The notes beneath the pieces are model-generated. The model was not told the DNA's origin and searched no databases. It was given only the letters and a program-made list of their open reading frames with translations. A stretch of 35,514 nucleotides of DNA from Craspedostauros australis (Eukaryota): the NCBI GenBank assembly GCA_030167865.1, contig JALAGF010002830.1:1-35514 (forward strand). The letters are read 5' to 3'. Positions 1,196 to 30,539 of this stretch are shown here, piece by piece. The translations under genes were made by a program, and so were the position numbers. Each line of letters opens with the position of its first letter. The first letter of the stretch is position 1.

Positions 1196-1960
1196 TTAGA
1201 TCTTGCTCAGAATCACGCGGTGGCCCTGATCCTCCAAGCGCTGCTTGATCGGGATGGCGTCATCGCCGTTGAATGGCTTGACGTTGTCCATCGGGTAGGC
1301 CATCTCCAACGCTTCGTACTTTTCGCGGCCGAGCTCGTGGTATGGAATGAGCTCGATGGCGTACGCCTCGACTTCCTTCGCAAAGTCAGAAAGGGCGTTG
1401 AGCTCGGCATCGCTGTCGGTCATGCCCTTCATCAGGACCCAACGCAGGGTGATGTTGGTGCTGGGGTACTTCTCGTGGATGTAACGTGCGAACTCCTTCG
1501 ACTTCTCCATCTCGTGCACTGGCACCTGCGCGATCTTGCTGGCCAGCTCGTTGTCCATGGCCTTCAGGCAGAGGAGGACGTTGTTGGTGACGGGGAGCAC
1601 CTTGTCCCAGCGTGCTTGGTTGCCGTAGCTGGCCGTGTCAAGGCAGGTTGTGAGGCCGAGTTTCTGGACTCGCTGGAAGACATCACGGACGAATTCGGTC
1701 TGGATCATGGCCTCGCCTCCAGAAAGCGTGATTCCGCCTCCGTTGGGCTGCAGCCATTCCTTGTACTTGCCAACCAACGAGGCGACCTCGGCGGAGGACA
1801 TGGCGTACTCTGGATGTTGGCGAGGATCGGCCATCTTCTGGGTTTCTGGGTTGCAGCAGAAGAGGCACTTCTTGGTGCATCCCTGCAGGAAGACGGTGGA
1901 GCGGATTCCTGGACCATCGGTGGTGGAGAAGCTCTCCATGGAGTACACGCTGCCCAGGAC
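1196..1960 (-). other. pflA: PFL-activating enzyme (radical SAM) domain of the fusion protein
   Basis: Aligns by eye, against my recollection of E. coli PflA, from start to end: [59 protein letters not shown], through to GHRVIL. Confidence 0.93.
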
Positions 1961-4870
1961 GGCACCTTGCTTCATCCCCTCGAGCTTGTCGACATCGGTC
2001 TCCTTCGCAATCTCCGCTTCGTCGTCCACGTCCTTGCGCGCCATCGTGACGACGCTGGCGGAATGCATGGTCCTGGCCATCACCTCTTCGCGCTGCTCTG
2101 GCGTGAGACGATTGAATCGGACGGCGTATCCGCTGACACGGATGGTCAGGTTGGGATACTTCTCTGGATGGCGGTGGGCATCCTGCAGGACCTCTCGGTT
2201 CAGTACGTTGATGTTGAGATGGTGTCCGTTGTGGTTGAAGTATCCATCCAACACGGTGACCAGGTTCGAAGAGCGCTGGCTCATGTGTCCCAGGGCACTC
2301 GGGAGGAGGCAGAAGGTGTTGGAAATGCCATCCATACACTTGCTGTACGGCACCTTGGCGACAGAGGAGAGCGATGCGAGGGCGCCGTTCTTGTCGCGTC
2401 CATGCATTGGGTTGCATCCGGGAGCGAATGGTTCACCCTGGAGACGACCGTCGGGGCTGGCTCCGGTTGCCTTGCCGTAGACCACGTTCGATGTGATGGT
2501 CAGGATGGACAAGGTCGCGGCGGCATCGCGGTACAGCGGCTGCTTGTTGAGCTCCTCGTAGAAGCGAGACACGACCTGGATGGCCAACGAGTCGACGCGA
2601 TCGTCGTCGTTTCCGAACTGAGGGATCTCCCGGCTCGCGTGGCCTCTCTTGAAGCCGATGGTCAATCCATCGTCGTTGCGGATTGGGAACACTTCGTCGT
2701 GCTTGATGGCGGACAAGGAATCGGCCACGACCGAAAGGCCGGCGGCTCCGAAGGCCATGAGGCGGTTGACGTTGCTGTTGTGCAAGGCCATCTGGACGTT
2801 CTCGTAGCACGCGCGATCGTGGGAGTAGTGGATGGTGTTCATCGTCTCGGCGTAGAGCTTGGCCATCCATGGGATGGCGATGTCGAAGTACATGTGCTCC
2901 AGCGAGCTGTAGTTGATGGGTTTCTTCTCGTCGCCCTTGCCGATGCCGAGTCGCTGGCATTCTGCCGCGAGCTCCGGGCAGACGTCGTCGCCGTGCATCT
3001 CATCGCGACCTCCGTTGAGGCACATGAGCAGCAGCTTGACCATGTTGGTACGGGCTCCGAAGAACTGCATGTCAACGCCCACGCGCATTCCCGAGACGCA
3101 GCATGCGATGGCGTAGTCGCTGCCGAAGATGGATCGCATCATGTCGTCGTTCTCGTACTGGATGGACGAGGTGGCGATGGACTGCTTGGCACAGTAGTCC
3201 TTGAAGGGAGCTGGAAAGTTCTGCGACCAGAGCACGGTGAGGTTTGGCTCTGGTGCTGGTCCCAAGTTGGTGAGGGTGTGGAGGAAACGGAAGGTGGTCT
3301 TGGTGACCATGCTCTTTCCATTCTCGAAGCAACCACCCAGGGCGAGGGTGAGCCAGGTGGGATCACCGGAGAAGAGGGCGTTGTACGCCGGTGGACGCAG
3401 GTGGCGGACGATGCGCATCTTGATGACGAGATCGTCAATGACCTCCTGGACCTGCTGTTCGTCGACCTTTCCATCCGCCAAGTCGCGCTCGGCGTAGATG
3501 TCGAGGAACGCGTCCCAACGTCCGACGGACATGGCGGCACCGTCCTGCTCCTTCAGCGCCGCGGTATGTCCCAGCCACATGAACTGGGCGGCGTCCTTGA
3601 AGCTGGTGGCGGGAAGCCTCATGTCGACGCCGTAGCTGTCGCCCATGACGAGGAGCTCCTTCAAGCCCTTGACCTGCTTCGTGATTTCGGAGCGGAGCTG
3701 CAGAGTCTCCGCGGATGCGCCCTTCACGGCGTCGTAGTCCAACTTCTTGCGGCGGATCAGCTCGTCGACACCGTACAGGGCGATGCGACGGTAGTCGCCG
3801 ATGATGCGGCCACGACCGTAGGCATCTGGAAGGCCCGTGAGGAGATGGGTATGGCGGGCCTTGCGCATCTCCTTGGAGTACATGGAGAAGACGAGGTCGT
3901 TGTGGGTTTGGACATCCTGTTGGCATATTTGTGAATTGGCGAAGTGTGCATTGCGTGGGTTGTGCGTTGCGCAGGTTGATTGATCATCATTTGTTATTGG
4001 ATTCGGTCCAAGTTCGATCAGTGTGGAGCAAAGCGAGACGAAGTGGCGCAAGATCAAGAGGGAATGGAACGGAACAGAATGGAACAGCGTGAGAACACTC
4101 GCATGGAACATACACGGAGATGAGATGAGAACGCGATGCACAAAATGTGGAGGCGTCGATGTTCGGAATCACATTTCTCGCGAAGCCTGCACATTCTGGG
4201 AATCGTGTGGTATTCCCGCGCGCCGATGGATTGCACGTTGCGCTTCGGGTGCTTGTGTGCGACGTACCTGGGTGTACTCCCTGGCCATGTCCTCGTCAGG
4301 CTCGTAGCCGTAGCTCTTGAGGGCGCTGCCCACGACCTTGAAACCTCCCTTTGGCTTGCAGGAGCGCTTGAGAGGCTCGTCGGTTTGGACACCGACGATG
4401 AGATCTTCCTCCTTGGAGAGGACGTATCCTGGCCCGTGGCTGGTGATGGTGGACGCTGTCTTGGTGTCGACGTCCAGGATGCCGCGCTGGCGTTCGAGCT
4501 CCATGAGCTCCTCGCAGCGTGCCCACGACTTGTTGGTGCGCTCGGTGGGACCGGCGAGGAAGGACGAATCGCCATGGTATGGCGTGACGTGCTCCGACAC
4601 GTACTGCTTGACGTTGCAGTCGCCTGGGAGCCCGGCTGGGTTGGCGACCTTGGGGAGCTCGGTGCCATCGTGCATCATGGGCTCCTGCTTGGCGGGGCCG
4701 GAGCCAACGACAGTCTTCGCCAAGTCGAAGAGGAGGTTGTTGGCGTTGCGGAAGGATGGGAAGGACCCATGGTTTCCGCGGACCGCCGGCTTGGACGGGC
4801 TGGTTGGGCTGTTGAGGTTGTTGCCATCAGAGTACTGAAGGCGAACGCGGTGGGAATGGATGTTCGACAT
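1196..4870 (-). CDS. pflB-pflA: Pyruvate formate-lyase (formate acetyltransferase) fused C-terminally to PFL-activating enzyme (radical SAM); exons 4870..4268 and 3916..1196, about 1107 aa
   Basis: Exon 1 carries the PFL N-terminal motif [15 protein letters not shown]. Splicing gives [14 protein letters not shown]...[23 protein letters not shown]. The catalytic Cys-Cys (AIACCVS, about 3098-3103) and the glycyl-radical loop [10 protein letters not shown] (Gly codon 2129-2131) are present. With no stop, the frame continues through a 34-aa linker into a PflA domain ([14 protein letters not shown] = CxxxCxx[23 protein letters not shown]). The ATG at 4870 is the first in-frame Met; the true start is unverified. 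Confidence 0.95.
3917..4267 (-). other. Spliceosomal intron (351 nt, phase 0) in the PFL gene
   Basis: Minus-strand donor CAG|GTACGT at 4267 and acceptor CAACAG|GAT at 3917. Removal joins two PFL-homologous ORFs in frame where bacterial PFL reads roughly FTEYRKTHNQGVF. Confidence 0.9.
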
Positions 4871-6946
4871 GGTCTTGACGTGGAACGAATGCACTGGCGG
4901 TGCAAAGTAGGCGAGGATGAATATGAAGTAATGCAATGGGGAGAGTCGGCAAGAAAACGTGATGGTGTCTTTGCCTGGGTGGTGGTGCTGCTGTAGCTGT
5001 TGCTTTTGTTGTTGCTTTGTTGCTGTGATGGTGGTGATGTGGTGGTTGATGTCTTTGGTTGGGATTTGCGTTTTGTGAGCAGAAAAGGAAAGGGAAGGGA
5101 AACAGTGACGGCAACGGCACCTCACTGCGGGGCATCAATGGAGAGATGACGGCGAAGAGAACCAACGAAGAAGGTGTGGAGAAAGCAAAGAAGAAGAAGG
5201 GCGTTGGCTCGCTTTGGCTTGGTGGAAGGAGGAATGCACCATACCAACGTACGTCTGGTTGGAGGTTTCACAACCCGAACCGTCAATCGTTTGGCGCGAT
5301 CGCGAACCCCACGAAATCGCGAAAACTGCGGCGATGCAGGAACGGTGTTCTCGTCTGCATCACGTTCGCGGCCACAAACGGCGATGGCCAAGAGCAACCA
5401 AGGGAGGAGGATTCTGGACAACATCCGAGAGTTTGGAGGAACTCTGCAACGGTCCTGCGAGAGAAGGAGTCTACTCGTGCTATTACACTTCCATGATTAG
5501 GAACAGAACCAATCGAGAATGCGGAGGGTTAGTTGGCGACGTGGGTGATGGAAGAGATTCGAAGACCGACTCCTCTTTCGCCAATCCCGCCAATACTTCG
5601 CACTGAGCTGATCGTATGGTGTGTATAATAGGTAATGGAGCAGCGTCGTCTCCTCCATTGCTTATCTACGATCTACCATACGCTCCTACCCTTCTCGGGC
5701 TTCTGGATTGGGGCTTCTCTCTTTGCTTCTCTGTGATCTCTGGAAGCAATCCGGCATAATCCGATGCGTCGACCAAGGGAGGAATCGGCTGTCGGCGCAG
5801 TTGTTGTCGGTGCTGAATCTGAAGAAATAGTGTACTGCTCTATTCCATGGCATACTAGTATATGTCCATGAGATTACGAACGTTATGGAATGAATATAGG
5901 TAGTGTATTCTCTCTCTCTCCCTTGAAGAGAAAGAGAGAGACTATGTACCTACACACAGTCAACAGCACCATCTTGATAGAATCCTCGGAAATGATCTGG
6001 TCCTGTTTCGTAGTTGTCGCCATGGTACTCAAATAGACCCTCATATGATTGATGTTCGCATTTGATTTCTGTTCAAGTTTGGGTTCTCGTTTCAAACACG
6101 CACATTGGCATGTGCCGAAGAAGGAACTCCAAGGAAAACGCGTGTTTTGTGGGCTCCTGTTGGAGTTCGTATTGGCGGCATGATGCTGATTGCGTCAGGA
6201 GGCGCCATTTGGTTGGAGGAGAGGAGCACACAGACGAGGAGGGAATCAAGACACGGCAAACAGCGAGGAACAGGATGCCGTCAACATCAAAGACATCATC
6301 AACATCTGCGACAGGTGGAGGCACCGACAGAGTGAAGAGCACGAGAGTGCACGAGAGTGTGCAGAGGGCGACCCCGAAGAACACAGTAAGAGCGGAGCGC
6401 AAAGCCGAGAAGGTCGTTGCTGCCATCGTCATCGTCATCGCCGGTGGTGTTCGTGTTGAAGTCACACATCATTGCATTCTCAATTGGAAGCAGAACCGCA
6501 TAACCATCCAACCGCACAACCACACCATCAACGAGGAGAGGACCATCTCTCGCAGGCGCCACATCACGCCCACCAGCTCCCCTTTCTGCTCTCTTGACAC
6601 GCAGAACATCTTCTCTGTATCCGTGCTTCGACATCACCACAACTGCCACTGCTGACATCAGCTCATACATTGACCACAGACACCGTGCTATACTCTGCCG
6701 TTCCCCATCATTCAGTCTGCAATAGAGTAGTTGTTGCTGTTGCCACAACTTATCAAGGCATCCGATTCGTATAATTGGTCGTAACCAAGAAGTCAAGGCG
6801 GCAAGCAACCAAATACTTCCACGCTGTTCCACCATACAAAGAAAGCAATTCATCACAACTCCACTCCCACCACAACCGCCGCCTCCATCCCCAACACAAC
6901 TAGAGTGCCAGCAACTGCCGCAACAATACAGACGTGTAGAGCAATC

Positions 6947-8422
6947 ATGGACAGCCCAGCGGAAACCACGGCACCGACCGTCGACACCAACGCCGAAAGC
7001 GTGAACGGATCTACCAGCAACACGAGCAATAGCAACAGCAGCGACCGCAACAGAATTCTTGCGACGGAAAATGGAACTGCGCCACCGGTGGTCCATGCAC
7101 CGCCAAACGCAATGCCCGATCCTGCCACTCCCGGTGCGCCATTCCACACACAAGCATCCTGGGACGAAGAGGCTGGAATGCGCTTGAGGAAGAACGCAGG
7201 AGTGGCATCCAACGCGGCTGCGACAAAGGACGCAGCGGGTGCACCCATGAAGCGTTCCCATCACACCGCCAATGATGGTCCAAATTCCAGCTTCTCCGCG
7301 CAAAAGCAGGGTGGACTTGTGGATCATCAACGTCAGGATCAGCCCATCGCGATCAAGTACACTGCCACCAAGACTCCCAAGAGCACCCTGAATGCGGTGT
7401 ACGAGGTGGGCAAGTACAAGGCAGGGCTGCCGCTCGATCTGCTCTGCATCCAGTCGATCATGGCGGGCATTTACATCGGCATGGCCGGTCATCTGTACCT
7501 CGCACTCGGTGGTGGCGTGCTGGGCTCCGTCTTCTTCCCAACAGGTTTGATCGCCGTCACCCTCACGAGCGCAGAGCTGTACACGGGCGATGCTCTCGTG
7601 TTCGTCGCATCAGTGCTGGGCAAGAAGGTCACCGTCGCCAAGCTCCTTCGCAACTGGACCGTCTCCTGGACGATGAATTTCGTCGGTGGCTTGTTCTGGG
7701 CCTACGTGCTGGCGTACGGTTCGGACGCGCTGGACGATGCTGGAGCTCGCGAGCTTGCCATCAAGATCGCCATCAAGAAGGCCGACCAACCCTTCTACCA
7801 AATCTTTCTCAAGGGCATCGGCGCCAACTTCATGGTCTGTCTGGGTGTCTGGCAGGCAACTTGCGCCGAGCAGGTGGCGGGCAAGATCCTGGCGCTGTGG
7901 TTCCCCATCTCCGGTTTCGTCATCATGGGCTTCGATCACTCCATCGCCAACCAGTTCTTCATCCCGCTCGGCATGATGCTGGGCACCGGCGACGAGCACG
8001 AGATCTCCTTCGGCGATCTGTTCTACGCCCTCGCCGCAGCCACAATTGGCAACGCTGTCGGTGGCGGATTGATGGTCGGCGCCGTGTATTGGTACGTCTA
8101 CGACTCCATGGCACGCAACACGCGGGTGCTGGGACAGCTGCGACGGCGATTCAACAACACCAACCAAGACGATGTGCCGCCGCCGCCGCCGCCAGGATCC
8201 GACGATCCAATGACCTCGGACCGCTTCATCACGCTCCAAGTCAGCGCCGACGGTCGGTCGATCCGATCGATGGGCATCGCGGACGGCAACCAATACCCGA
8301 CTGCAGCAGACAACGATGACAATGACATGCACGGCCATAACGAGTTCATCCCGGTGCAAATGAAGTCAACGAGCATCCATCGTGGCAGGCTGGAGAATGA
8401 CGGTGGTCTCCGTCTCTCATAG
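6947..8422 (+). CDS. Formate/nitrite transporter (FNT; FocA/NirC/NAR1 family), 491 aa with long hydrophilic N- and C-terminal extensions
   Basis: FNT motifs AGIYIGMAG, FPTGL...AELYTG, NFVG, KGIGANFMVCLGVW, KILALWFPI..F..GFDHSIANQF (conserved channel His) and TIGNAVGG, with several hydrophobic helices. First ATG is at 6947. Confidence 0.93.
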   Translation: MDSPAETTAPTVDTNAESVNGSTSNTSNSNSSDRNRILATENGTAPPVVHAPPNAMPDPATPGAPFHTQASWDEEAGMRLRKNAGVASNAAATKDAAGAPMKRSHHTANDGPNSSFSAQKQGGLVDHQRQDQPIAIKYTATKTPKSTLNAVYEVGKYKAGLPLDLLCIQSIMAGIYIGMAGHLYLALGGGVLGSVFFPTGLIAVTLTSAELYTGDALVFVASVLGKKVTVAKLLRNWTVSWTMNFVGGLFWAYVLAYGSDALDDAGARELAIKIAIKKADQPFYQIFLKGIGANFMVCLGVWQATCAEQVAGKILALWFPISGFVIMGFDHSIANQFFIPLGMMLGTGDEHEISFGDLFYALAAATIGNAVGGGLMVGAVYWYVYDSMARNTRVLGQLRRRFNNTNQDDVPPPPPPGSDDPMTSDRFITLQVSADGRSIRSMGIADGNQYPTAADNDDNDMHGHNEFIPVQMKSTSIHRGRLENDGGLRLS

Positions 8423-9099
8423 AGTAGGAAAGCGCGAAGTGCATCCTGAATTTACGTGGCGAGGTCGCGGAGTGTTGCCAATCGAATCAGCAGAAACAGC
8501 TGCGATGGCAGCTACAGCAATATAGTAGCCACGGCGGCCTGGACGAGATCAGTGGAGTGCACACAAGTAGTGTCAATAGATGAACATCTGATTTGTACGT
8601 ACGTATCATTGCCCGTATCATAGGCTGTGCCATGGCTGTATCATGCCTCCTCGTACTTGTCATCAACTGAAAGAACAGACAACCGGTTTGTTCCGACTTT
8701 TGTCAATTTCTCCCGTTGTGGTCGCGTGCAATTCCACAACTATTTTTTGTTTTCGTAGACTTCCAGAGCAGACGTGGAAGAATTGCAAAGACAGCCAAAT
8801 CGTGTTTCGGTAGTCGATCTAGTCGTGAGTCGTATCACAGCGAATAGATACTGAAATAACGTCTATAACGTCAAACAGCACGACTCAGACACGAATGGTC
8901 ATTTTGAGACCCGCTTCTTGCATGCCACGAAACAGCACGGCGAAACAAAGCACGACACGTCGCAGGATCGCGCCGTCGCTGTCGCTGCGATGAGTTGGGA
9001 ATGATGTTTGGCGCGAACGAAACAAGGGAAGACCGTTGTTGTTGTTCACAAAAACCGCAGAGGGGCAGAGAGTAAGAGCGAACATACTCTGGAGACACC

Positions 9100-10890
9100 A
9101 TGGCATCGACCTTGCGACAAAGACGCAACGCCAACGGGGCTGCAGATGATGGCACGAAGGGCGGAACTGCGTTCGCAGCATCCATCTCTCAACCATCTCA
9201 GGAGCACACCTCCGAGAGAGCCTCGGGACTTCGGAAGAGCGAGACGCTGGTCCCGATGGACGGTGGATCGGCCGCAGTGGACGAGACGGCCATCCCCACG
9301 GCTGACGAGCCGACGGAGGCACCGAAGCATGTCTCCGCCATTCAGGATGCCAACCATCCGACTGCGCGACCCCAGGCTTTCCCGCATTCCTCATCATCTG
9401 TCGACACGGAGCAGCTCCGCGATGGTGGATCCAAACAGGGTGCAGCACGGGGAGAAGCACAGCTGCAAGCGGAGGCGGAGGCAGAGGCGAGTGCGGGGGA
9501 AACAACTCGGGGACCGATGACTGGGAAGCAGGTCGCCAAGGATGAAGCCAGGATCAAGAAGGTCATCACGCGCTGGGTCAGCGGCCTCGTCATGATCAGC
9601 TGCTTCATCGGCTGTCTCGCCATGGGGCACGTCTACGTCGGTCTCATGGTGGTGCTGGCGCAGGTCGCCCTGTTCCGAGAGCTGGTCAAGGTGCGCTACC
9701 ATGCGCACTACGCCACTATCTCGGGCGGGACGATTCCGCTGTTCCGCACGTTGCAATGGATGTGGTTCTGCGTCGCCATCGCCTACACGTACGGCGACTT
9801 TGTTGCCGAGATCATCCAGCACAATCCGCAGCTGCACGGATACCTCAACATGGCGCACTACGCAACCATCCTGTCCTTCGCCCTGTACTCAGGAACGTTC
9901 GTGCTGACCATCGCCACCATGCAGGTGGGGCACATCAAGTTTCAGCTCAATCAGCTGTGCTGGACGATCGTCGTGCTGTGCCTGACGGTGGGTCAGCTCA
10001 AGTACATCATGCACAACATCTTCAACGGCCTCTACTGGTTCGCATTGCCCATCATGCTGGTGGTTACGAACGACTGCATGGCGTACATCTGCGGTCGCAC
10101 GTGCGGTCGCAAGTTCATCCACCGCCCCTTCATCGCCTTCTCCCCCAACAAGACGTGGGAGGGCTTCATCGGCAGCGGGATCTTCACCATCATGTTCTCG
10201 TGGTACCTGAGCCGCCACCTCGCGCAGTACAAGCTGATGACCTGCCCCTGCAACGAATTCAGGCTGATTCCGCGTCCCATGGAATGCGAGCCGCATCACG
10301 TGTTCCAACCAAGCCAGTCCATCCTGCCGCAGCAAATCTTCGAGGTCTTCCCACCATCGTTGGTGAAGCTGATCCCGGGCATCGTCGAATTCTGCAGCGT
10401 CAAGGCCGGCCAATCCCAGTTCCCGCTCGGCAGCAAGCTGGAACTCGAGATCACGCGCTGCATCTCGGGCGAAGAATCGCACTCATTCCACCACTTCGAG
10501 CTGGTGCTGAAGAATGTGTACCCCGTCCAGATCCACGCTCTGTGGCTGGCCCTGTTCGCCTCGCTCGTGGCGCCCTTCGGCGGATTCCTCGCCAGCGCCA
10601 TCAAGCGCGCCTACGGCATCAAGGACTTCGACTCCATCATCCCGGGTCACGGCGGTCTCATGGATCGCGTCGACTGCCAATTCCTCATGGCCCTCTGCAC
10701 GTGGGTGCATTACAACACCTTCGTCAAGCTGGCCACCGTCAGCGTCCCCAAGCTCATCTACATGTACTCGCTGCTGTCGCAGCCTGAGCAATCGCAATTC
10801 CTCGTGGATCTCGTGAAGGCGGAAGGCGACGTGCTCAACGCGACGCAGATCCAGCAGTTGCTGAACGTATTGAAGAAGCAGCTGCATTAG
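9100..10890 (+). CDS. CDS1: Phosphatidate cytidylyltransferase (CDP-diacylglycerol synthase), eukaryotic CDS1/2 type, 596 aa
   Basis: Signature motifs SPNKTWEGFIG and APFGGFLASAIKRAYGIKDFDSIIPGHGGLMDRVDCQ; multiple transmembrane segments; uninterrupted ORF. Confidence 0.95.
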   Translation: MASTLRQRRNANGAADDGTKGGTAFAASISQPSQEHTSERASGLRKSETLVPMDGGSAAVDETAIPTADEPTEAPKHVSAIQDANHPTARPQAFPHSSSSVDTEQLRDGGSKQGAARGEAQLQAEAEAEASAGETTRGPMTGKQVAKDEARIKKVITRWVSGLVMISCFIGCLAMGHVYVGLMVVLAQVALFRELVKVRYHAHYATISGGTIPLFRTLQWMWFCVAIAYTYGDFVAEIIQHNPQLHGYLNMAHYATILSFALYSGTFVLTIATMQVGHIKFQLNQLCWTIVVLCLTVGQLKYIMHNIFNGLYWFALPIMLVVTNDCMAYICGRTCGRKFIHRPFIAFSPNKTWEGFIGSGIFTIMFSWYLSRHLAQYKLMTCPCNEFRLIPRPMECEPHHVFQPSQSILPQQIFEVFPPSLVKLIPGIVEFCSVKAGQSQFPLGSKLELEITRCISGEESHSFHHFELVLKNVYPVQIHALWLALFASLVAPFGGFLASAIKRAYGIKDFDSIIPGHGGLMDRVDCQFLMALCTWVHYNTFVKLATVSVPKLIYMYSLLSQPEQSQFLVDLVKAEGDVLNATQIQQLLNVLKKQLH

Positions 10891-11965
10891 AGAAGTAGCG
10901 TGTGGTGCGAGTTCTTGTGTAATTGATTCGTAGCATTATAGTAGGATGGGTTATGGCATAATATAGTAGTACGGTATGGTATGGCATTGCACGCAGTATG
11001 GCAACGCGTTAGCAGGCGCAGATCGGAATGGGGCGCAATGCCTGGTCTGCCAGGAGAGTTGCGGAATGTTCTGTGGATGTGGGGATCCCCATGGATCGTG
11101 GCGGAGTGGAGCTGGGTTGGGTTGGGTTGGAGGGAGGGAGGAAGGAAGATGAAGTGAGAGAACGTGTGGAATGTGAGAGATGGGATTGGAAGCATTGTAC
11201 GCATGGTCTAATAGATCGTAGGTATGATACGGGCTACTCTACTCTGCCGTTAGGTGCAGCGGCACCGATGAACTTCATGTTGTTGGTGGCGGAACATTGG
11301 GCCGTTCGCTGTGACTGTGGAAGTACTCTGCTCTTGTCATGATAGCGGCTGCAGAAGCCGTTTCCACCAAGTCCCGTCTCCGTTTTCTGTCGTTTTCTAC
11401 TTGCAGTGCACCACCATGCAAATGACCCGAATTCATTCGCCCCCTTTCTCAGGGAACACAAGCTCTGGGGGTAGCGAACGAAGATGCGAGCTATTTCGTC
11501 ATTTCTCTGATTGTGAAGCAATGACTTTCTGGCCCCCTTGACAGCTCCTTCTGCCATCAGTGCTGTCTCGTTGGGAGTGATTCATCCCGGCCGGTCTCCG
11601 TTCTTCGTCGACCAATCCTCCCACGAAGCTGTGCACAAGAGTGAGAGAGTCATCCAAACGCGAAGCAAGAAAAGCAACAACGACACAATAGACCCAAGAC
11701 GGACATCTGCCCAAAGCACGAGAGGAAGTGACCTCACCACCCCATCAGGACGGACACATCCGCGCGCGAGTGTTCCCACAGCGACAGCTGCGCTCGCAAT
11801 CAGATTCGCAATCAGATTCACATTCAGATTCATATTCACACAGAGAGGGCTCACACTCACATTCACCTTCACATTCACACAAACAAGTGCAGAACGAAAG
11901 CAAACGCAAGAGCAAGAGCAACAAGAGCACCACCACCACCACCAACAACAACAGCAACAGCCACA

Positions 11966-15730: not shown

Positions 15731-17590
15731 ATGGCATCGAAACGTTCTCTCTCAACGACCCGCCACGCCAAGATCCAGAATACTGGAGGCAGAGCATCAG
15801 CGGAAGGAGCACGAAGAAAGATGAGACTGGCCAATTCTGGTTCGAAGGTGGACAACGCGGTTGCCCATGGCCGTACCACATCCAATGGCGGCCAGTCCAT
15901 CTGTGCGGCTGATCTCGAAAGCAGCAAGCCGTCTCCCAATCGTGCCAGTGCCCGCGGACAGCCAGGATCGGCAAAGCCAAAGCGGCCAACCCAGCTCAAG
16001 AACAAAAACGACAACGACCCGACGACGCTGTTCCCATACGTGCTGCATCAGCTCCTTGACGATGTCGCGAAAAGCGGCAAGGACAGCATCGTATCATGGA
16101 ACGGCATGGACACTTTCCGAGTGCACGATCGTGAAAGGTTCATGATCGAGATCCTGCCCAAGTACTACCGGCAGACCAAATACAAATCCTTCCTGCGGCA
16201 GCTGAATCTCTGGGGCTTTCGTTGCATAGATTCCGGCCCCAAGCGTGGTTCCTGTAAGTATCTGCGCTTGCATATGACACTCTCTTGTGCCATGTATGCA
16301 CATGGTACTCGGTTCAGAATGCGGCACATACTCTAGCCAACAGTGCCTGCTCATCAGTTTGGCCATGTCCCCATCAATTCACTGCATGAAGTGACCTTCA
16401 TGGAACGGGCAACACTTGTGGGCAACACTTGTGGGCAGCACTTGTGGGCAGCACTTGTGGGCAACATGTCTGAGTGTACCTTACTCGTATTAGTATGCAC
16501 GACACTACCCGACGATGGCGCCATACTCACATCCTGTCCTTCCTCTGAACTCGATCATGCCAATACTCATATACCGCCAGATCAACATGCTTGCTTTGTT
16601 CGCGGCAATGAGGATTTGTGCGCCAACATGAAGAGAGTCAAGATCAAGGGAGCCAAGAGTCGAAAGCTGCTGCAGAAGAAGAAGAAGCAAAGTTCCAGCG
16701 TTCCAAACCAAGGCCGTTCACTCAAGAAGAATGGAAGCAAGCTGGCTGCATCGAAACAGAGCAAGCGTACCAGTCCTCCTACCGAGGGGATCGCTTCTCA
16801 GCTCGACACCAGCGACGATGCTGATTCTCAATCGAATGATCCAGGTAGCGACCCGACAGCTCCGACAGACTTTGATTGTCTCCCAATCGTATCGCCGACC
16901 GATCCTCAAGAAATATCTCCGTTGGTGGCGGCATCCTTGTCAACCAACACGGCAGCATCACCAACAACACCAAACAGACCACGCCCAACAGAAACGATGG
17001 TCTCACCATCCGGGCTGAGTCCTCAGAAGACGGCTGATGGATCGATCCATGCTGGACCAGTTCCTCCCACCGACGATCCGATGACACCGTGCTCTATCGG
17101 TACACCACATGGCGAAAAGTGCGACCGTCTAGACTTCTTCCGGCGTGATTTTTCTCCATACAATCTCCCAAGGCTGCATTTGCAACAACTGGAACAACAG
17201 CAGTTGCAGCAGAAGTTGCAGGAGCAAGCTCGCGCCAATGCGATCGCGCGAGTCCAAGTCCAAGTCCAAGCATCACAACTGCAGCAGCAGCAGTTACAGC
17301 TGCGACAGGGATTTGGATTGGCGCAACAGCAGCAGCAACGGAGAGAGGAGCAACGAGATTGGCTCCAGAGCATCGAGGAAGCCTTCACGTGCCAGGATGC
17401 TGTGAGCGCAAACAATTCATTGCAATTTTCTACCACACCAAGGATGATTTCCTCACCATTCTCCATGAATCATTCTAATTGCTCTCAACGATGGTCGAAT
17501 GGAACGATCAGCGATTTTGGATCATCACAAATCATGGATTCTTCTACCATGCTCATGAAGTGCCTCGAACCAAGGCCCTTCCGCGCATGA
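15731..17590 (+). CDS. Heat shock transcription factor (HSF-type DNA-binding domain); exons 15731..16253 and 16581..17590, 510 aa
   Basis: HSF DBD: FPYVLHQLL..IVSW..FRVHD..F..EILPKYYRQTKYKSFLRQLNLWGF, completed after splicing by Y-QHACFVRG..LCANMKR. It is followed by a basic NLS-like KKKK, a S/P/T-rich region and a Q-rich segment. Confidence 0.9.
16254..16580 (+). other. Spliceosomal intron (327 nt, phase 1) inside the HSF DNA-binding domain
   Basis: T|GTAAGT donor at 16254 and CCGCCAG| acceptor at 16580; the join yields the conserved Y-x-H-x-x-F-x-R-G. Confidence 0.88.
16407..16466. repeat. 13-bp minisatellite GGGCA(A/G)CACTTGT, about 4.6 copies, intronic
   Basis: Read directly: two copies with A, two with G, then a partial copy. 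Confidence 0.9.
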
Positions 17591-18168: not shown

Positions 18169-21100
18169 TTATCTCCATGGCCGCCGAGGTGTTCGTGCAG
18201 CGGTCACTCCTCCTGGCGTCGTCATCGTGATCGCCATCGTTGGTGTCGGCGTTGATGTTGCCGCTTCTGCTCCTGCATGCGGACCTCCTGGTCGCCCTGT
18301 TGATGGCGCCATTGGCCGTGTCTGATGGTGGCGGGGGCTGGTCAGCTCAGTTTCCAGGGAACGGATTCGAGCCTTCAATGATGCCACTTCGATCTCCTTT
18401 TCCTCCTCTAGCTGATAGACGTGAGATCTGAGCTGCGAGGCCTCGTCCTGGCTCTCCTGCAACGAATTTTTCGCTGACATCGCCAAGCAGGCAGCGATCT
18501 CCTCGGCACGGATCTTCATGGCACTAGTGTGCAAATCATCCGTGATTCTGGTGACATATAGTTCCGGCGCCGCAAACTTCACTTGGCTGTTTTGAACAGG
18601 GATGGTTTGGTGGACACCAGAGCTGCGGCTGCCGATATTGACGTTGGTGGGATGGTTGTTCATCGCGTAATCCTCCTCCTCTATCCACGCAGAAGCGGAA
18701 GACTGCGTGCCAGGCGAAACCACGTCGGGGATCTGTCTAAAGATGTCCTCGAAACCACGAAAGTCGTTGCTCTTCGATGCAAGCCGCGACAATCGCTCCC
18801 TGCCTATATGCAAACTCTCAAGGCAAAGGTCACGCTCTCGTCGGACACGGTCGTTCGAAGATTCCAAGAGTGCCACCCGCTCCAACAAGTCGCGGCGTTC
18901 TCGCGAGAAACGCTGCGTGTCATCAGACGAGGAACGTTCGCGTTCCAATATACGGCGTTTCGTCTCGGTCTGGAAGCTTTCCAATGCGATCTTCATGTCT
19001 GTAATGCGATCTTCCGAGCGTCTGTAATCATCCCTGACTGCCAACAGCTCGTGTTCCAAGCGCTCGATGGTCGTAGACTTGATGCGAAGCTCCGACTTGA
19101 GTTGGTCTTGGTCCAGCGAGTTGGAGGTGAACAGCCGATTTTGCGAATCGAATTGTTCTTGCAGCTGCAGATTCTTGCGTTGCGACTCCTTGAGCTCCAG
19201 CTGGAGGGATGAGAGAGTCGTTTCCATCGACACGATCTTGGACTCGTAAATTCGTTTCTGCGAGATGATTTCTTCATGAAACTGCTGCACTTCGATGGTC
19301 AAACGCCTGTTCTCGGTTCGGAGATGATTCGCATCTTCCCCGGCCCGCGACATGCCTGCCTCCGACTGCTGCAACCGATGCAATGCGCTGTCGAGATCCA
19401 TTTGCAGGCTGCTGTTCTCCTTCCGGAGTTCTGACAGCTGCCTCTCCAGGTCCTCGATACGAGCTTGCAGCTCCAGGATCGTGCGATCGGACAGCTCCGC
19501 GCTCTTTCGTTCACTCTCGCGCAGAGCCGCCAGTTCGGCCGACGACCTCTCCAACTGCATGCGCAGCTTGCCTGCCTCTTCCTCCTTCGCGCTGACGTCG
19601 TGGAAGTACTCAGATTTGCGCGTAGTCAACGCAGATTCCAATCCAACATTCTCCTGTCGCAGCTGTGCCAGCTCGGCGTGGAGACGATCGATATCACTAT
19701 CCTTCCCAAGACCCTTGCGGATATCCTCCTGCAACCGCTCGATCATCGCCATGTCCTTGAGGCGGCTTGCTGTCAGCTCGTCATGCTCCATCCTCAATTT
19801 ATTGCCCTTCTTCAATTCCTCCCGAAGCTGCTCCTGCAGCTGCTCGGCGAGGTCCGACTTCGTCTTTAGCTTCCGCTCGAGGTGCATCTTGTCCTGCTCC
19901 GTATTGTCGGCCGTGACCTTGAGTCGGTACAATTCAGCGTTGAGCTTGTCGCTCTCGCTCAGCCTTGTTTGGTACGATGATGCTTGCTGTTTCTCCAGCG
20001 AACCAATCGTGGCCTTCAGCGTCTCGACTTCGTGATCCAGCTTGTGAATCGTGATCTGCGCTTCCTTCTCTGCGGCCTGTAGGTCGATATTGTGCTTCAG
20101 CAACGTCTCCTTCCCACCCTCTAGTTCGGCCACCTCGCGGTTCTTGTCGTCAATAGCATGCGAGCTCGCGTCGAGGCGGACGGCGAGATCCTGCTTCTCA
20201 ATTTCTACGGCATTCTTCATGCGCTGCAGCTCTAAGATCTGCCGTTGCATCTTATCCTTCTCGCTTTCCGTCGCGCTTTTGGCCTGCCGCAGCTCGTTCA
20301 TTTGCAGACCGAGGCTGCGATTCTGTCCTTCCAATTCGGCTTTGGTCTTTTGGAGATCCCCGATGCGCTTGGTCAATTCTTGATTACCACCCTTCATCTG
20401 TTGCTGATGTTGCGTCGCCTCGTCAAGCTGGGATTTCAAGGTCTCGTTCTCGGCCTGCATCGAAGCATTCGCCTGTTGCAGCTCTGTTCCATTCTGGAAC
20501 AACCGGCTGATCTCGCCATCCTTCGCCTTGCCTTCCTCCTCCAGAACAATCTTCTCTCGGGTCAGCACATCCTGCTCGCCTTCAAGCTTAAGGATCTGCG
20601 AGTGCAGCTGCTGCACGGCCTCCGACTTTTCGTTGCTGCTTTGCATGAACTGCTCGGCCGTGCTCTCCAGCTTCTTGGCCTTGCTTTGGCTCACGCGGAC
20701 CTCGATGTTGAGCTCCTGGATCGTTTGTCGGAGGGATTCGATTTCCTTCTGCTGCGTTGCTTTCGTCTCTTCTGCTTCCTGCCGCATCTTCTGATGGTCT
20801 GCGCTCGTTTGTTGTTGGTTCTTGAAGTCCTTGGAGATGGCCTGCAGCTTGTTGCCGAGCTCGTTCAGCTGATCCTTCATCCCTGCCTTCTCCTGCTGCA
20901 TTTCCTGCGCTTGGATATCTTTCATTTCCATTGATTTTTGAGCATCGGCGAAGCTCTTCTGGATCACACTCATCTGCTGTTCCAGGTCGCTTTGAGCTGC
21001 GGTCACCTCCTCGGCGACCTTCTCCACCTCCCTGCGTTCGTGGATGGACGTTTCCAGCCGTTCCCTCAGGCTGGCAATCTCATCGTCGCGCCTTTGCATC

Positions 21101-24100
21101 TCGTCGCGGCTGTTCGCGACAACCGTATTGAAGTCATCTCGTGCCACGTCCAGCAGCGACTTGAAGTCATCCCTCTCGCCGACGATCGTCTCCAGCATGT
21201 ACTGCTGCGAAATGCTGGATTCCTTGAGGCGTTGTACTGCCAGTGCGATCTGTTGCCACAGCGTGGAATCGATGGTCCGGATGCGATTGATGGAGGATTC
21301 CAGCGATTCGATGTCCTTGAAGAATCCGTCATTGTTGACGACAAATGTTGTCGATGCGGGAGATCTCACCTTCATCTCGGAGAACAGAGGCGTTGTGGAA
21401 TCGCTGGATGCGTTTGCTGACAGCGCGTTGGACTTCTGTGGGGTCTGATTGGCGCTGATGTCCAGCGGGTTGTTGTGGGAGTTCGATCCGAAGAGATCTC
21501 GATCCTGCACTCCAGCGTTGTCATAAGCACCATCACGATCAGCGGCAACATCATTGTCGCCGTCATCATCGTGGTCGTCGTTCTCATCATTCCATTCGGA
21601 CCATTTCGACATATCAAGCGACTGATCTGGTTTGTTCGGAGGCATGCTGACGTTCGGCAGGCTGGCGGTGTCCACGCTCTGTTCGGTAGCGTCGGGTTGC
21701 GGGCCGAGACTCAAGGACTGCTGCTCCGATATGGTGTCATCGAGGATGTTGGTCGGCTCGATGCCGGATGTGTGGTCGATGTATCGCTTCAACGGCGACT
21801 CGCCGACGGTTGGGGTGATTGCGATTGGTTTCGCGTACCTCGCATTGTCGCCATCGTCATTGGCACCATCGTTCGTATGATCCATGTTACCTCCTTCGTT
21901 GCTCTGTTGATCATCAAAGTAGGACGGGTGCCTCGAATGGTGCGCGCGGATGGATGGTTCCTTCTGATCTTCAGTTGGATTCGTGGACCACCGTGCCGTC
22001 TCATGAACGTGGTGATTCGTCGTCGTCGTCGTTCGGTGCTCTTCGACGCTTTGGAACAACACCGTCTTGACGTTGGATGCTGATTGAGGCAAATCCGGAT
22101 TGTGCGTGCGCGGTGCGGACTTTGGATATGTTTTGGGACTTGGCGGTTGCCGATTCCCACTTTGTGGTGCAGGAGCGCTGTAGCGAGGTATCCTGGATTG
22201 CAACGGATTTCTAACGGCGGGGGCAGGTGTCGGTGCAGGCTCAGTGTTATTGACCGGCACGGTGACAGGCGCCGAAGATGGCGGCGGCGCCCATTCCTCC
22301 GGCATATCGTTGCCACTGGGAACACCGCTATCGTTAGCCGGGATGGGTTGAGACCTTGCTGCTGGACTTTTTGGTGGAGGGGCATTTCTGGGACCTTTGA
22401 TGTAGGCCTTGACGTCGAACTGCTGAAAGTCGGTCATGTAGTTGGATGGTCGGTAGGAATGCGAATTGTACTCCTTGCGCGTGGGTGTCCGTTGGACCTT
22501 GATGGAGGGTGATGCAGGCGTCGCCGCCTTCGGTTTTGGCGATTTGAAGATCTTGGCCAACCGTTGACGTGGATCGCTCAACACTTGCTCCAGAAGGTGG
22601 TCGCTCTTCGCCAGCTCCTTCAATGCTGGCGATGACGGGACTGCATCGTTGCTGTTGGTGGCGGTGTCTGAGTTTGAGGGAGTCGGCACAAGCAACGATT
22701 TGTGAACATCGCCCTCCATTCTGCTGGACGCCTTGAATGGACTCGATGCAGTTTTGCCAGGTCGCACCAACAACCTCTGACAGAAGCTGAGCACGCCCAC
22801 GGTGGCATCGTACTCATCAGCATATGGCGAGATGCTCCCGATGACGACGACCTTGCTGCTGTGCTGCTCGAGCGGCCTTTGCAGAAGTTTCGTGAGCAGC
22901 GATTCTCGGTACGACACGGCCAGGGACGGTTCCAAGGTGGTCTGCTTGACGGCCTGCGGCGTGCCTGTCGCGGTGGAACGCCTCATGCCCGGCGAGAAGG
23001 ACATGATGGAAGCACCCAGCGCATGTTCCTGGATGAGCATCGCGCGCAGGAGATTCCCCAAAGTGACTGTGGACTTTTTCTGCAGCATGCTCTTGGTGCC
23101 GCTGTGGCCGGCGGCCGTGGAGGAAGCGAAGGAATCGTTGATGGACGCGGACGATACCGAGGCCGAGGATGCTGGCGATGTGAAGTGCGGCAGCGCCAAT
23201 TCTACGAAAGTGAGGACCGAGGTGGGTGGTTTTGAGGATTCGTAGTGGGTCGCGGTGTCCCATATGTTGATGGTGGTGAGAAAGAAGCTGACGCCGGGTG
23301 ATGCGGAAGAGGCTCTGGAAGGTGACATCCTGGCGGTGTGCTTGCGCCGGCGCTTCCTCCGCTTGCGTCCCGACAGCGCCTGCGTCAAGGACGGCGTCGC
23401 GTCGATGGGCTGCTCGATCAGGCCGACGAGCTGCGCGCCCTTGGTGTCGGTGTGGCGGATCGTGATGTTGGACGGCGGCATCTTCGGCGGGACCAGCATG
23501 TCGAGGAGCTCCTCATCGTCATCGGCCTCGAGGACGGAGATCATCGCCACGGCCTTGTCGGGCAGCGTGGATTGTAGCTGGTGCAAGACGCGCAGGATGA
23601 GTCCCTCCGATCCCAGACAGTTGGTTTTGTGGCCGATGGAGACGACGCAGGTGGACTGTTGGTGGATGACGGCGTCCTGGGCAACGGCCTTGGCCAGGAA
23701 GGGCATGGTGGAGGTGTTGTGGTGCTCCTTGCCGTTGGTCTCGCTGGTGGTGCTCTGGATGGTGTTGGGCGAATGACCGTTGGATGATGCGGCCTTGGCG
23801 GATGGCACGTAGGACCACATGACGTGGTTGAATTCGTAGAGCCTCGCCCAGTCTTCGGAGCTGATGTGTGCCACCTGCGCCACCAGCTTGGCGGTCTCCA
23901 TGGTGACATGCGAGGGTATGTACCTGCCAAAGGCCGACGGTTTGACGACCACCAGATCTCGCTCCGTGCTCTTGGATGCGTTGATGGCATTGTCCTTGGC
24001 GTCGCTGGAGGTCGATTGTTCACCAGCCTCGGGCATCAGCTGCTGCGGAAAGATGCACTGCTGCCGCTCGCCCGGCTCCTTCTCTTCGCACACACGCACG

Positions 24101-24768
24101 ATGACGCTGACCTTGCGACATGGCTGCAAGGACACCTTGCTGGACAGCTCGTCCCGATCCTGGCGCTTCTTGAGCAACGGCGAGAACGGCGACAGGAATC
24201 CCTGATTGGCCGCCGCGTGTCTCGGCGTGCCGTACACCGGTGGTGCCGTGGCTGGTGCTGCAGTGCTGGAACCCTGCGGCCGATGCGGCGTCTGATAAGA
24301 AGAGTTGGTTTGGATGCTGGTCTGAATGCGAGTGTGAACGCCCGTTGTCTGCGTCTGCGTCTGTCTCTGTGATTGTCTCTGTGATTGTGATTGTGATTGT
24401 GTGGATGCCCGTGGACTTGACGCATCGAGATTGTTCCGACGCCGCGTGACGGAGGGGGACTTGGCGTCGTCCTTGCCTTCCGCATTGGCTGAAGCACCAC
24501 TTCTGCCTCCACCTCCGCCGATCGTCTTGGGAATCGGAGAGACGAAGAGGCTGCTCCCACTTCCTCCTGCTCCTGCTGCTGCTGCTCCTCCGTTGCCTCC
24601 AGCCTTGCCCACCAGGAAGGGAGACGCCACGAAGTCCTCCGACACTGTGGATGCATCCAGCTTGATGCTCTCCGCGGAGATGTCCGTCTGCTCCACATCC
24701 CGCAGGTATTCGGCGAAGGATCGATCAGGAGCATGCGCCTGTGCAGAAGCTTGCGCAGGTGCTGACAT
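18169..24768 (-). CDS. Kinesin-like protein with degenerate motor domain, disordered middle region and long coiled coil, 2199 aa
   Basis: Single 6.6-kb ORF. Kinesin-fold remnants occur in the right order: KVSVIVRV, YEFNHV, ISVLE..E.LLDML, LVGLIE, LTFVELA, KSTVTLGNLL, SYRESLLTKLLQ, VVVIGSISP..YDATVGVLSFCQR. The C-terminal half is E/Q/K/L-rich and heptad-like. Confidence 0.8.
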   Translation of the reverse strand: MSAPAQASAQAHAPDRSFAEYLRDVEQTDISAESIKLDASTVSEDFVASPFLVGKAGGNGGAAAAGAGGSGSSLFVSPIPKTIGGGGGRSGASANAEGKDDAKSPSVTRRRNNLDASSPRASTQSQSQSQRQSQRQTQTQTTGVHTRIQTSIQTNSSYQTPHRPQGSSTAAPATAPPVYGTPRHAAANQGFLSPFSPLLKKRQDRDELSSKVSLQPCRKVSVIVRVCEEKEPGERQQCIFPQQLMPEAGEQSTSSDAKDNAINASKSTERDLVVVKPSAFGRYIPSHVTMETAKLVAQVAHISSEDWARLYEFNHVMWSYVPSAKAASSNGHSPNTIQSTTSETNGKEHHNTSTMPFLAKAVAQDAVIHQQSTCVVSIGHKTNCLGSEGLILRVLHQLQSTLPDKAVAMISVLEADDDEELLDMLVPPKMPPSNITIRHTDTKGAQLVGLIEQPIDATPSLTQALSGRKRRKRRRKHTARMSPSRASSASPGVSFFLTTINIWDTATHYESSKPPTSVLTFVELALPHFTSPASSASVSSASINDSFASSTAAGHSGTKSMLQKKSTVTLGNLLRAMLIQEHALGASIMSFSPGMRRSTATGTPQAVKQTTLEPSLAVSYRESLLTKLLQRPLEQHSSKVVVIGSISPYADEYDATVGVLSFCQRLLVRPGKTASSPFKASSRMEGDVHKSLLVPTPSNSDTATNSNDAVPSSPALKELAKSDHLLEQVLSDPRQRLAKIFKSPKPKAATPASPSIKVQRTPTRKEYNSHSYRPSNYMTDFQQFDVKAYIKGPRNAPPPKSPAARSQPIPANDSGVPSGNDMPEEWAPPPSSAPVTVPVNNTEPAPTPAPAVRNPLQSRIPRYSAPAPQSGNRQPPSPKTYPKSAPRTHNPDLPQSASNVKTVLFQSVEEHRTTTTTNHHVHETARWSTNPTEDQKEPSIRAHHSRHPSYFDDQQSNEGGNMDHTNDGANDDGDNARYAKPIAITPTVGESPLKRYIDHTSGIEPTNILDDTISEQQSLSLGPQPDATEQSVDTASLPNVSMPPNKPDQSLDMSKWSEWNDENDDHDDDGDNDVAADRDGAYDNAGVQDRDLFGSNSHNNPLDISANQTPQKSNALSANASSDSTTPLFSEMKVRSPASTTFVVNNDGFFKDIESLESSINRIRTIDSTLWQQIALAVQRLKESSISQQYMLETIVGERDDFKSLLDVARDDFNTVVANSRDEMQRRDDEIASLRERLETSIHERREVEKVAEEVTAAQSDLEQQMSVIQKSFADAQKSMEMKDIQAQEMQQEKAGMKDQLNELGNKLQAISKDFKNQQQTSADHQKMRQEAEETKATQQKEIESLRQTIQELNIEVRVSQSKAKKLESTAEQFMQSSNEKSEAVQQLHSQILKLEGEQDVLTREKIVLEEEGKAKDGEISRLFQNGTELQQANASMQAENETLKSQLDEATQHQQQMKGGNQELTKRIGDLQKTKAELEGQNRSLGLQMNELRQAKSATESEKDKMQRQILELQRMKNAVEIEKQDLAVRLDASSHAIDDKNREVAELEGGKETLLKHNIDLQAAEKEAQITIHKLDHEVETLKATIGSLEKQQASSYQTRLSESDKLNAELYRLKVTADNTEQDKMHLERKLKTKSDLAEQLQEQLREELKKGNKLRMEHDELTASRLKDMAMIERLQEDIRKGLGKDSDIDRLHAELAQLRQENVGLESALTTRKSEYFHDVSAKEEEAGKLRMQLERSSAELAALRESERKSAELSDRTILELQARIEDLERQLSELRKENSSLQMDLDSALHRLQQSEAGMSRAGEDANHLRTENRRLTIEVQQFHEEIISQKRIYESKIVSMETTLSSLQLELKESQRKNLQLQEQFDSQNRLFTSNSLDQDQLKSELRIKSTTIERLEHELLAVRDDYRRSEDRITDMKIALESFQTETKRRILERERSSSDDTQRFSRERRDLLERVALLESSNDRVRRERDLCLESLHIGRERLSRLASKSNDFRGFEDIFRQIPDVVSPGTQSSASAWIEEEDYAMNNHPTNVNIGSRSSGVHQTIPVQNSQVKFAAPELYVTRITDDLHTSAMKIRAEEIAACLAMSAKNSLQESQDEASQLRSHVYQLEEEKEIEVASLKARIRSLETELTSPRHHQTRPMAPSTGRPGGPHAGAEAATSTPTPTMAITMTTPGGVTAARTPRRPWR

Positions 24769-30385: not shown

Positions 30386-30417
30386 TACTGTTTGTTTGAT
30401 TCTTGCTCTATCCGACA

Positions 30418-30474
30418 ATGAGCACAGATAAGAAGCCAGCCGTGCCGACGAAGCCAAAGGCAGAAGGCGGCACC

Positions 30475-30539
<65 letters not shown>

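Follow-up and report, generated by a model that had tools for sequence, protein, structure and literature searches.

A fused pyruvate formate-lyase and activase gene stands head to head with an FNT-family channel gene in the diatom Craspedostauros australis

A stretch of 35,514 nucleotides from Craspedostauros australis (NCBI GenBank assembly GCA_030167865.1, contig JALAGF010002830.1, positions 1 to 35,514 of the forward strand; hereafter the window) carries two divergent genes, one encoding a pyruvate formate-lyase (PFL) fused to its own activating enzyme and the other encoding a channel of the FNT family. The locus is read here as an ordinary diatom nuclear locus in which two genes of separate, old eukaryotic ancestry stand head to head, the channel most likely releasing formate, and not as the remnant of a bacterial operon; the probability attached to this reading as a whole is roughly 0.5. 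A first-pass annotation of the window had placed the PFL-activase fusion on the minus strand (ATG at 4870) and the FNT gene on the plus strand (ATG at 6947), diverging from an interval of about 2.1 kb, and had proposed the pair as a candidate for an undescribed system packing three functions into two genes, with co-transfer from a bacterium or convergent clustering as its origin. The arrangement is confirmed by open reading frames (ORFs) and Pfam domains, and two genes do encode PFL, activase and FNT-family channel. The novelty of the pair as a system, by contrast, does not stand: it consists of two well-known gene families in a correctly described arrangement, and the fusion is a widespread, monophyletic eukaryotic gene that is already in the databases.

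Two ORFs of the minus strand contribute to the PFL-activase gene. The longer (1196-4141) matches the Pfam families PFL-like, Gly_radical, Radical_SAM and Fer4_12, and the shorter (4169-5125) holds the PFL N-terminus and matches the first 120 positions of PFL-like. Read from the first in-frame ATG to the stop at 1196, the gene comprises two exons and yields a product of approximately 1107 residues (Table 1). Residues 84-199 of exon 1 match positions 13-127 of TIGR01255, the two exons are in phase, and the full-length homologues P0022 and P0025 span the exon junction in alignment without loss of a residue, residue 201 of P0025 falling at 4268 and residue 202 at 3916. Because no read-level splice joint is present among the contigs of a public run designated X1, the intron rests on homology.

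Comparison with protein families and with the E. coli enzymes supports both halves of the fusion. Exon 2 scores 497 bits against PFL-like (PF02901; cut-off 24.3) and 118.8 bits against Gly_radical (PF01228; cut-off 22.2), and the activase part scores 51.3 bits against Radical_SAM (PF04055; cut-off 29.5) and 44.6 bits against Fer4_12 (PF13353; cut-off 22). The TIGR01255 model returns 824.5 bits for exon 2 and 106.7 bits for exon 1, the exons having been scored separately and the cut-off of 994.2 bits applying to the whole protein. The activase equivalog TIGR02493 returns 196.1 bits, below its cut-off of 231.75, with membership in the activase family still carried by PF04055, PF13353 and the CX3CX2C motif. 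Identity to E. coli PflB is 43% for exon 1 (PflB residues 23-140) and 53% for exon 2 (residues 143-756), and the C-terminal activase part of exon 2 is 36% identical to residues 2-246 of E. coli PflA. The radical glycine lies approximately 55 residues upstream of the activase domain. On the strength of these matches, the gene is a member of both the pyruvate formate-lyase family and the PFL-activating enzyme family.

Such fusions are common. All four Pfam domains occur together in one protein in 71 of the 83 best database matches (P0004-P0086), and the named examples include, among diatoms, Fistulifera solaris, Epithemia clementina, Cyclostephanos tholiformis, Seminavis robusta, Thalassiosira profunda, Cyclotella atomus and Thalassiosira sp. 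AJA248-18, and beyond diatoms, Chromera velia, Polarella glacialis and a euglenid-labelled transcript (EG_transcript_549). The nearest relative of the window PFL is a JGI sequence (P0004, 87% identity), and the closest named relative is a Fistulifera cluster (74%). Public records label the PFL-activase fusion merely 'formate C-acetyltransferase'.

Phylogenetic analysis was performed with 94 PFL domains by a quick IQ-TREE search in which support was measured solely by the Shimodaira-Hasegawa-like approximate likelihood ratio test (SH-aLRT), the set having been reduced by 27 of 36 near-identical bacterial matches of approximately 742 residues (P0087-P0122) and by one row without the glycine motif. 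The resulting tree gathers the window protein and the 70 fused database rows, without exception, into a single clade of 82 rows (SH-aLRT 99), outside of which stand Monoraphidium, a chlorophyte, together with bacterial PFLs and E. coli. Eleven rows of the fusion clade are not fused; eight of these carry 82-129 residues after the glycine motif, compared with 24 in bacteria, and look like truncated fusions. Taken together, these data suggest that the PFL-activase fusion, common to diatoms, chromerids, dinoflagellates and the euglenid-labelled transcript, appears to be of single origin, and that the window gene is an ordinary orthologue of this widespread eukaryotic fusion. The single origin is a more solid result than the pairing of the two genes, and the history of the fusion may help to trace how genes have moved among algae with complex plastids.

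Searches of the open full-text literature found no paper in which a eukaryote is described as having PFL fused to its activase or PFL paired with an FNT gene, although a diatom fusion may be mentioned in work of Stairs et al. from 2011 or of Atteia et al. from 2013. Passages of algal fermentation reviews and iron-sulphur inventories enter PFL and PFLA separately (PMC3660698, PMC6856725, PMC8003979, PMC12924338, PMC6732389), and in the passage concerned of one of them PFLA is given as missing from Phaeodactylum and present in Thalassiosira pseudonana (PMC8003979).

The N-terminal extension of the PFL fusion (window 4621-4870, approximately 83 codons) contains the motif RLxYS(D/E) ... LRxNHGSFP(S/T)(F/L)R, which is kept in pennate diatom relatives. 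Basic in character, the extension has few acidic residues among its first 50, and its composition shows no hydrophobic leader. The degree of conservation of the pennate motif seems to exceed what a simple transit peptide would show. The fusions of the Thalassiosirales have a different and more hydrophobic N-terminus, in which a hydrophobic stretch is followed by FAFV and which resembles a plastid-type leader.

On the opposite strand, the ORF at 6905-8422 begins translation at its first ATG and encodes the channel in one exon. Pfam PF01226 (Form_Nir_trans) matches the protein with 225.9 bits (cut-off 34.6), and its H331 and T213 align with H209 and T91 of E. coli FocA. On the basis of the PF01226 match, the central histidine and the Omega-loop threonine, the protein is a member of the FNT family. 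Moreover, when eleven pore residues known for FocA (F75, L79, L89, T91, K156, N172, V175, F202, H209, N213 and N262) are located by alignment to E. coli FocA, all eleven are identical in the window protein. Scores against the NCBIfam models stay below the cut-offs: the general FNT model TIGR00790 returns 179.7 bits, below its cut-off of 232.3, the FocA equivalogs TIGR04060 and NF008069 return 144.7 (cut-off 290.1) and 93.2 (cut-off 440), and the NirC equivalog NF008595 returns 91.4 (cut-off 293).

Table 1. Features of the PFL-activase and FNT locus in the window
Feature	Position	Strand	Description
Exon 1, PFL-activase gene	4268..4870	-	201 codons (P0003); N-terminal extension of ~83 residues, then start of PFL domain
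Intron, PFL-activase gene	3917..4267	-	GT-AG, 351 nt; CAG/GTACGT ... ACAG/GAT
Exon 2, PFL-activase gene	1196..3916	-	906 codons and stop (P0001); PFL body, glycyl-radical domain, 34-residue linker, PFL-activating enzyme domain
Catalytic Cys-Cys pair, PFL	3098..3103	-	P0001 residues 272-273 in AIACCVSG; same motif in E. coli PflB
Radical glycine codon	2129..2131	-	P0001 G596 in RVSGYAVRF (starts at residue 593); motif identical in E. coli PflB
Linker, PFL end to activase start	1964..2065	-	P0001 residues 618-651; PflB alignment ends at 617, PflA alignment starts at 652
Radical-SAM cluster motif CX3CX2C, activase	1856..1879	-	P0001 residues 680-687, CTKKCLFC; E. coli PflA counterpart CLMRCLYC
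Interval between start codons, presumed shared 5' region	4871..6946		2076 bp; genes divergent
FNT-family channel gene, one exon	6947..8422	+	491 codons and stop (P0002); hydrophilic extensions, N-terminal ~145 and C-terminal ~100 residues
FNT membrane core	7385..8095	+	P0002 residues ~147-383, Pfam envelope; Thr213 (7583-7585), central His331 (7937-7939)

An exhaustive HMMER search with the FNT protein returned 4398 relatives at E ≤ 0.001, 20 of them named. The FNT tree, produced by a quick search with SH-aLRT support, combined 113 of 155 candidates (those with at least 215 of 256 core residues) with the window protein, FocA and NirC. The window protein falls in a diatom-type clade of 24 rows (SH-aLRT 97, and 99 in a rerun) that includes Nitzschia, Cylindrotheca, Epithemia, Seminavis and Thalassiosira. 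This clade joins two further sequences (support 96) and then a clade of 12 rows containing Vitrella brassicaformis, Platyproteum vivax and Neospora caninum (support 87). Filamoeba, Syssomonas, Gonapodya, Chlorarachnion and Aureobasidium lie on the same side of the main split, the eukaryote-rich side, which also contains short, bacterial-looking proteins; E. coli FocA and NirC lie across that split (branch support 97). By family score and by tree alike, then, the window FNT is not FocA-like. Both the PFL and the FNT tree show an affinity between diatoms and alveolates, which fits old residence of each gene and says nothing about their linkage.

Examination of the FNT N-termini of the window protein and ten diatom homologues (11 in all) revealed no hydrophobic leader: in a crude 15-residue hydropathy scan, the maximum was 0.46 in the window extension and at most 1.24 in the homologues, with an upstream exon being possible. 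The extensions are hydrophilic, often acidic and mutually unrelated, and they converge on a conserved stretch (…TK-PK-TL-AVY-G-YKAGLP) located directly before the first membrane helix. Since targeting to the diatom plastid requires a signal peptide and, behind it, a transit peptide, and no leader is seen in this clade, import of nitrite into the plastid appears less likely as the role of diatom-type FNTs.

A working scheme for the locus can be drawn from established PFL chemistry for the enzyme steps and from FNT biochemistry for the channel. Under anoxia, the activase domain would use S-adenosylmethionine and a [4Fe-4S] cluster to place a radical on Gly596 (exon 2 numbering); the glycine acted on may belong to the same polypeptide or to the other subunit of the PFL dimer. 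Fusion would guarantee a 1:1 supply and a common location of the two activities, and the activated PFL would produce acetyl-CoA and formate. The FNT protein, with its FocA-like pore, would probably reside in a non-plastid membrane because it has no signal peptide; solved members of the family are pentameric. Most likely it would serve as an exit from the compartment or the cell for formate or formic acid, and perhaps for further small anions of weak acids. The channel's substrate is inferred, as are the sites at which the two proteins reside, any co-regulation from the shared interval and any selective reason for the adjacency; that this FNT serves PFL-derived formate is a proposition with about even odds.

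Several observations weigh against formate release as the role of this channel, and the strongest competing explanation is that the two genes are neighbours by chance in a compact genome with many divergent pairs, the FNT protein being a channel for nitrite, bicarbonate, lactate or another small anion. This explanation is a serious one, with a probability that falls somewhat short of even. Firstly, linkage of the two genes in relatives, whose absence the first-pass annotation had named as grounds for refutation, was not seen as far as the contig records allow. The sizes of the contigs recorded for PFL and FNT protein matches served as an indirect proxy for linkage; the FNT matches were the best 120 of 170-177 from word-indexed searches and of diatom type only, the longest contig represented each cluster, and a missed gene model could hide a neighbour. 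Among the matches listed, the two genes occur on contigs of different size in Epithemia clementina (PFL fusion on 902,971 bp; FNT on 1,752,787 bp and on 1,444,160 bp, the latter with two genes), in Thalassiosira profunda (586,774 bp and 1,072,853 bp, respectively) and in Seminavis robusta (51,977 bp and 140,254 bp). Likewise among the matches listed, none of 13 PFL-fusion contigs of at least 20 kb, including two from Fistulifera, is equal in size to any of 13 FNT contigs of at least 20 kb. One short pair does share a size (5214 bp; PFL fusion P0011 and FNT P0243), about one such coincidence is expected by chance, and the pair was not counted.

Secondly, the pore residues shared with FocA are conserved across the whole FNT family and so do not identify the substrate. 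Thirdly, the closest solved structure to the window protein is Chlamydomonas LCIA/NAR1.2 (PDB 9v2a), which scores 135.9 bits over residues 138-393, ahead of Vibrio FocA (93.4), clostridial HSC (86), E. coli FocA (84), NirC (73) and PfFNT (69.1). Fourthly, passages of Phaeodactylum papers draw diatom FNTs as the plastid nitrite transporter NAR1 (PMC8811913, PMC5948301). Finally, the compartments proposed for the PFL fusion and the FNT protein are guesses from N-terminal composition alone. Chance adjacency is also consistent with the presence of several FNT paralogues in diatoms, Epithemia having three among the matches listed, and with the other neighbours in the window, a CDP-diacylglycerol synthase, an HSF-type factor and a copia-like element, none of which is functionally related.

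Other results count against coincidence, or against the substrates that it would leave to the channel. A given gene is expected to have an FNT neighbour with a chance of only approximately 5 in 10,000, a rough estimate that supposes a few FNT paralogues and an assumed 10-20 thousand genes; adjacency is therefore unlikely in any one genome, but this pair was picked out after the fact. The nitrite reading, moreover, must accommodate a diatom-type clade that is without the signal peptide of plastid proteins, and domain matches of the window's ORFs reveal no nitrate-assimilation genes. As for LCIA, it is also the top solved match of four other eukaryotic FNT representatives, and since these score higher against it (142-175 bits), the window protein is not specifically LCIA-like; the match only places it, on present scores, in a broad, eukaryote-rich part of the FNT family. 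Weighing these points, we continue to favour the reading of two old eukaryotic genes standing head to head with formate release as the channel's most likely role, and a species-specific, possibly co-regulated pair of genes for making and releasing formate is a plausible description of the locus.

Convergent clustering, the other origin suggested in the first-pass annotation, may apply in this one lineage. A more ambitious proposal is that the pair constitutes a two-gene module of this diatom lineage that makes and exports formate in dark anoxia, in which a self-activating PFL and a formate-conducting FNT are placed on a shared bidirectional control region as a eukaryotic reinvention of enterobacterial focA-pfl logic from genes of different ancestry. 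This proposal is doubtful at present. Benthic and ice diatoms endure long spells of darkness and anoxia; their disposal of fermentation acids is poorly known. If the FNT is indeed the formate exit for PFL, the locus would provide a promoter pair and two candidate genes with which to approach diatom dark fermentation.

Descent from a bacterial operon, in which focA-pflB-pflA would have been taken up whole, followed by fusion of pflB with pflA and inversion of focA, is very improbable, despite the fact that E. coli holds the genes in that order. A scan of metagenomes with the fusion protein yielded 80 loci, one of which is diatom-like (L001, a 3.4 kb contig with the gene alone). The remaining 79 are non-diatom pfl loci (0.99 Mb fetched), 60 with a pflA-like ORF and 49 with at least 2 kb upstream. 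Just one of the 79 (L056, 8402-9346, just upstream of pflB-pflA) carries an FNT gene anywhere in that DNA, and the product of this gene does lie, like the window FNT, on the eukaryotic side of the main FNT split and not on the side of E. coli FocA. When added to the tree, however, it falls with short FNTs in a 6-row clade of its own, which is not sister to the diatom clade. Co-transfer from a bacterium, as suggested in the first-pass annotation, is without support because the window FNT, nested among eukaryotic FNTs, resembles FocA neither by family score nor by tree. The intron of the PFL gene and a composition that matches its neighbours also argue against it, as do the rarity of FNT genes at the non-diatom loci and the fact that the fusion is common to alveolates and a euglenid-labelled sequence, yet records of other diatoms show no PFL-FNT linkage. 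A side result of the scan concerns the focA-pflB linkage of textbooks: judged by these 79 loci, the non-diatom ones most similar to the window PFL, it is by no means a general feature beyond enterobacteria.

Least probable of all is that the adjacency is an assembly artefact or the product of contamination: no evidence for it was found, although no contig of run X1 spans 5201-6800 and the join is to that extent without independent confirmation, and against it stand the typically diatom nearest relatives of both genes, the continuous composition across the window, the absence of repeats at the interval edges and X1 contigs that match both genes without a single difference.

The X1 data (guessed to be RNA; 13 million letters, containing 0.48 of sampled words) provide an independent sighting of the locus. 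Contigs identical to the window cover 936-2556, 2528-3004, 3026-3593, 4588-4945, 7438-7654, 7790-8552 and 10311-10986, the first of these crossing the PFL-activase linker junction with zero differences. One contig reaches 5027, so that 157 nt or more upstream of the ATG belong to the PFL transcript, or to the contig. None lies over the intron, 5201-6800 or 8801-10000, gaps that are not used as evidence. The contigs show that both genes are present unchanged in a second data set, and say nothing on co-regulation. Some contigs break into unrelated sequence at 126, 2767, 3606, 5027 and 7042; these points are not GT/AG sites, and the unrelated ends match no other part of the window. They are probably assembly breaks, perhaps at low-complexity runs; a second allele is another possible cause.

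The interval between the two start codons has a G+C content of 0.50-0.52, compared with 0.58-0.60 in the flanking coding DNA. Across the window G+C ranges from 49 to 61%, with higher values in coding stretches, and the coding G+C of the PFL gene matches that of neighbouring genes. Within the interval, no Pfam-matching ORF (two ORFs tested), Rfam family, transfer RNA gene, or direct or notable repeat was found. Downstream of the FNT gene follows an ORF of 596 codons (9100-10890, plus strand) of the CDP-diacylglycerol synthase family (CTP_transf_1, 188.7 bits), unrelated to fermentation. Further along the plus strand, the ORF at 15731-16336 carries an HSF-type DNA-binding domain (52.6 bits), and the adjoining ORF at 16343-17590 may belong to the same gene; an ORF of 1280 codons (30403-34245) has weak matches to a gag zinc finger and to the copia-type RVT_2 domain (RVT_2 23.9 bits, below the cut-off) and is probably a Ty1/copia-like retroelement. 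No Pfam family matches either of two long minus-strand ORFs (18169-24768, 2199 codons; 25588-27807, 739 codons) at E ≤ 0.001. The region from 18 to 28 kb shows a strongly negative AT skew.

Comparison with known systems places each half of the locus in context. Among algal FNTs, the NAR1 family of Chlamydomonas reinhardtii includes LCIA, the best solved match of the window protein. The window FNT is no closer to LCIA than the four other eukaryotic representatives are. According to the passages concerned, NAR1.1 and LCIA act in the chloroplast on nitrite or bicarbonate (PMC5948301), whereas no leader is seen in the window protein.

Of the named FNT clades, the nearest is that of apicomplexans and chromerids, represented by Neospora caninum XP_003883256.1 and Vitrella brassicaformis CEL95363.1, which are 40-43% identical to the window FNT. 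PfFNT and its Toxoplasma counterparts sit in the plasma membrane, where they act as lactate/formate:H+ transporters through which fermentation acids are released. The likeness has its limits: the join of this clade to the diatom-type FNTs is only moderately supported, and PfFNT (PDB 6vqq) is the lowest scoring of the solved structures named above.

In E. coli, focA-pflB-pflA (b0904-b0902) brings together in one place the same three functions as the window pair. The bacterial locus, however, has its three genes on the same strand, transcribes focA together with pflB and makes separate proteins, whereas in the window two genes diverge, and thus cannot share a transcript, and enzyme and activase are fused. 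Identity between the window FNT and E. coli FocA, across the main split of the FNT tree, is 34%. The N-terminal domain of FocA contacts PflB; it has no counterpart in the 145-residue, non-conserved N-terminal extension of the window FNT.

A close correspondence is found with other eukaryotic fusions. Those of Fistulifera solaris (GAX28273.1 and GAX16364.1), Chromera velia and Polarella glacialis share with the window gene the same domain order of N-terminal extension, PFL, glycyl-radical domain, linker and radical-SAM activase. Fusions of other diatoms, Chromera and Polarella are of similar length (1100-1170 residues), identity to the window protein reaching 60% in Chromera and the higher value already given for the Fistulifera cluster, and they differ from the window gene in no essential respect.

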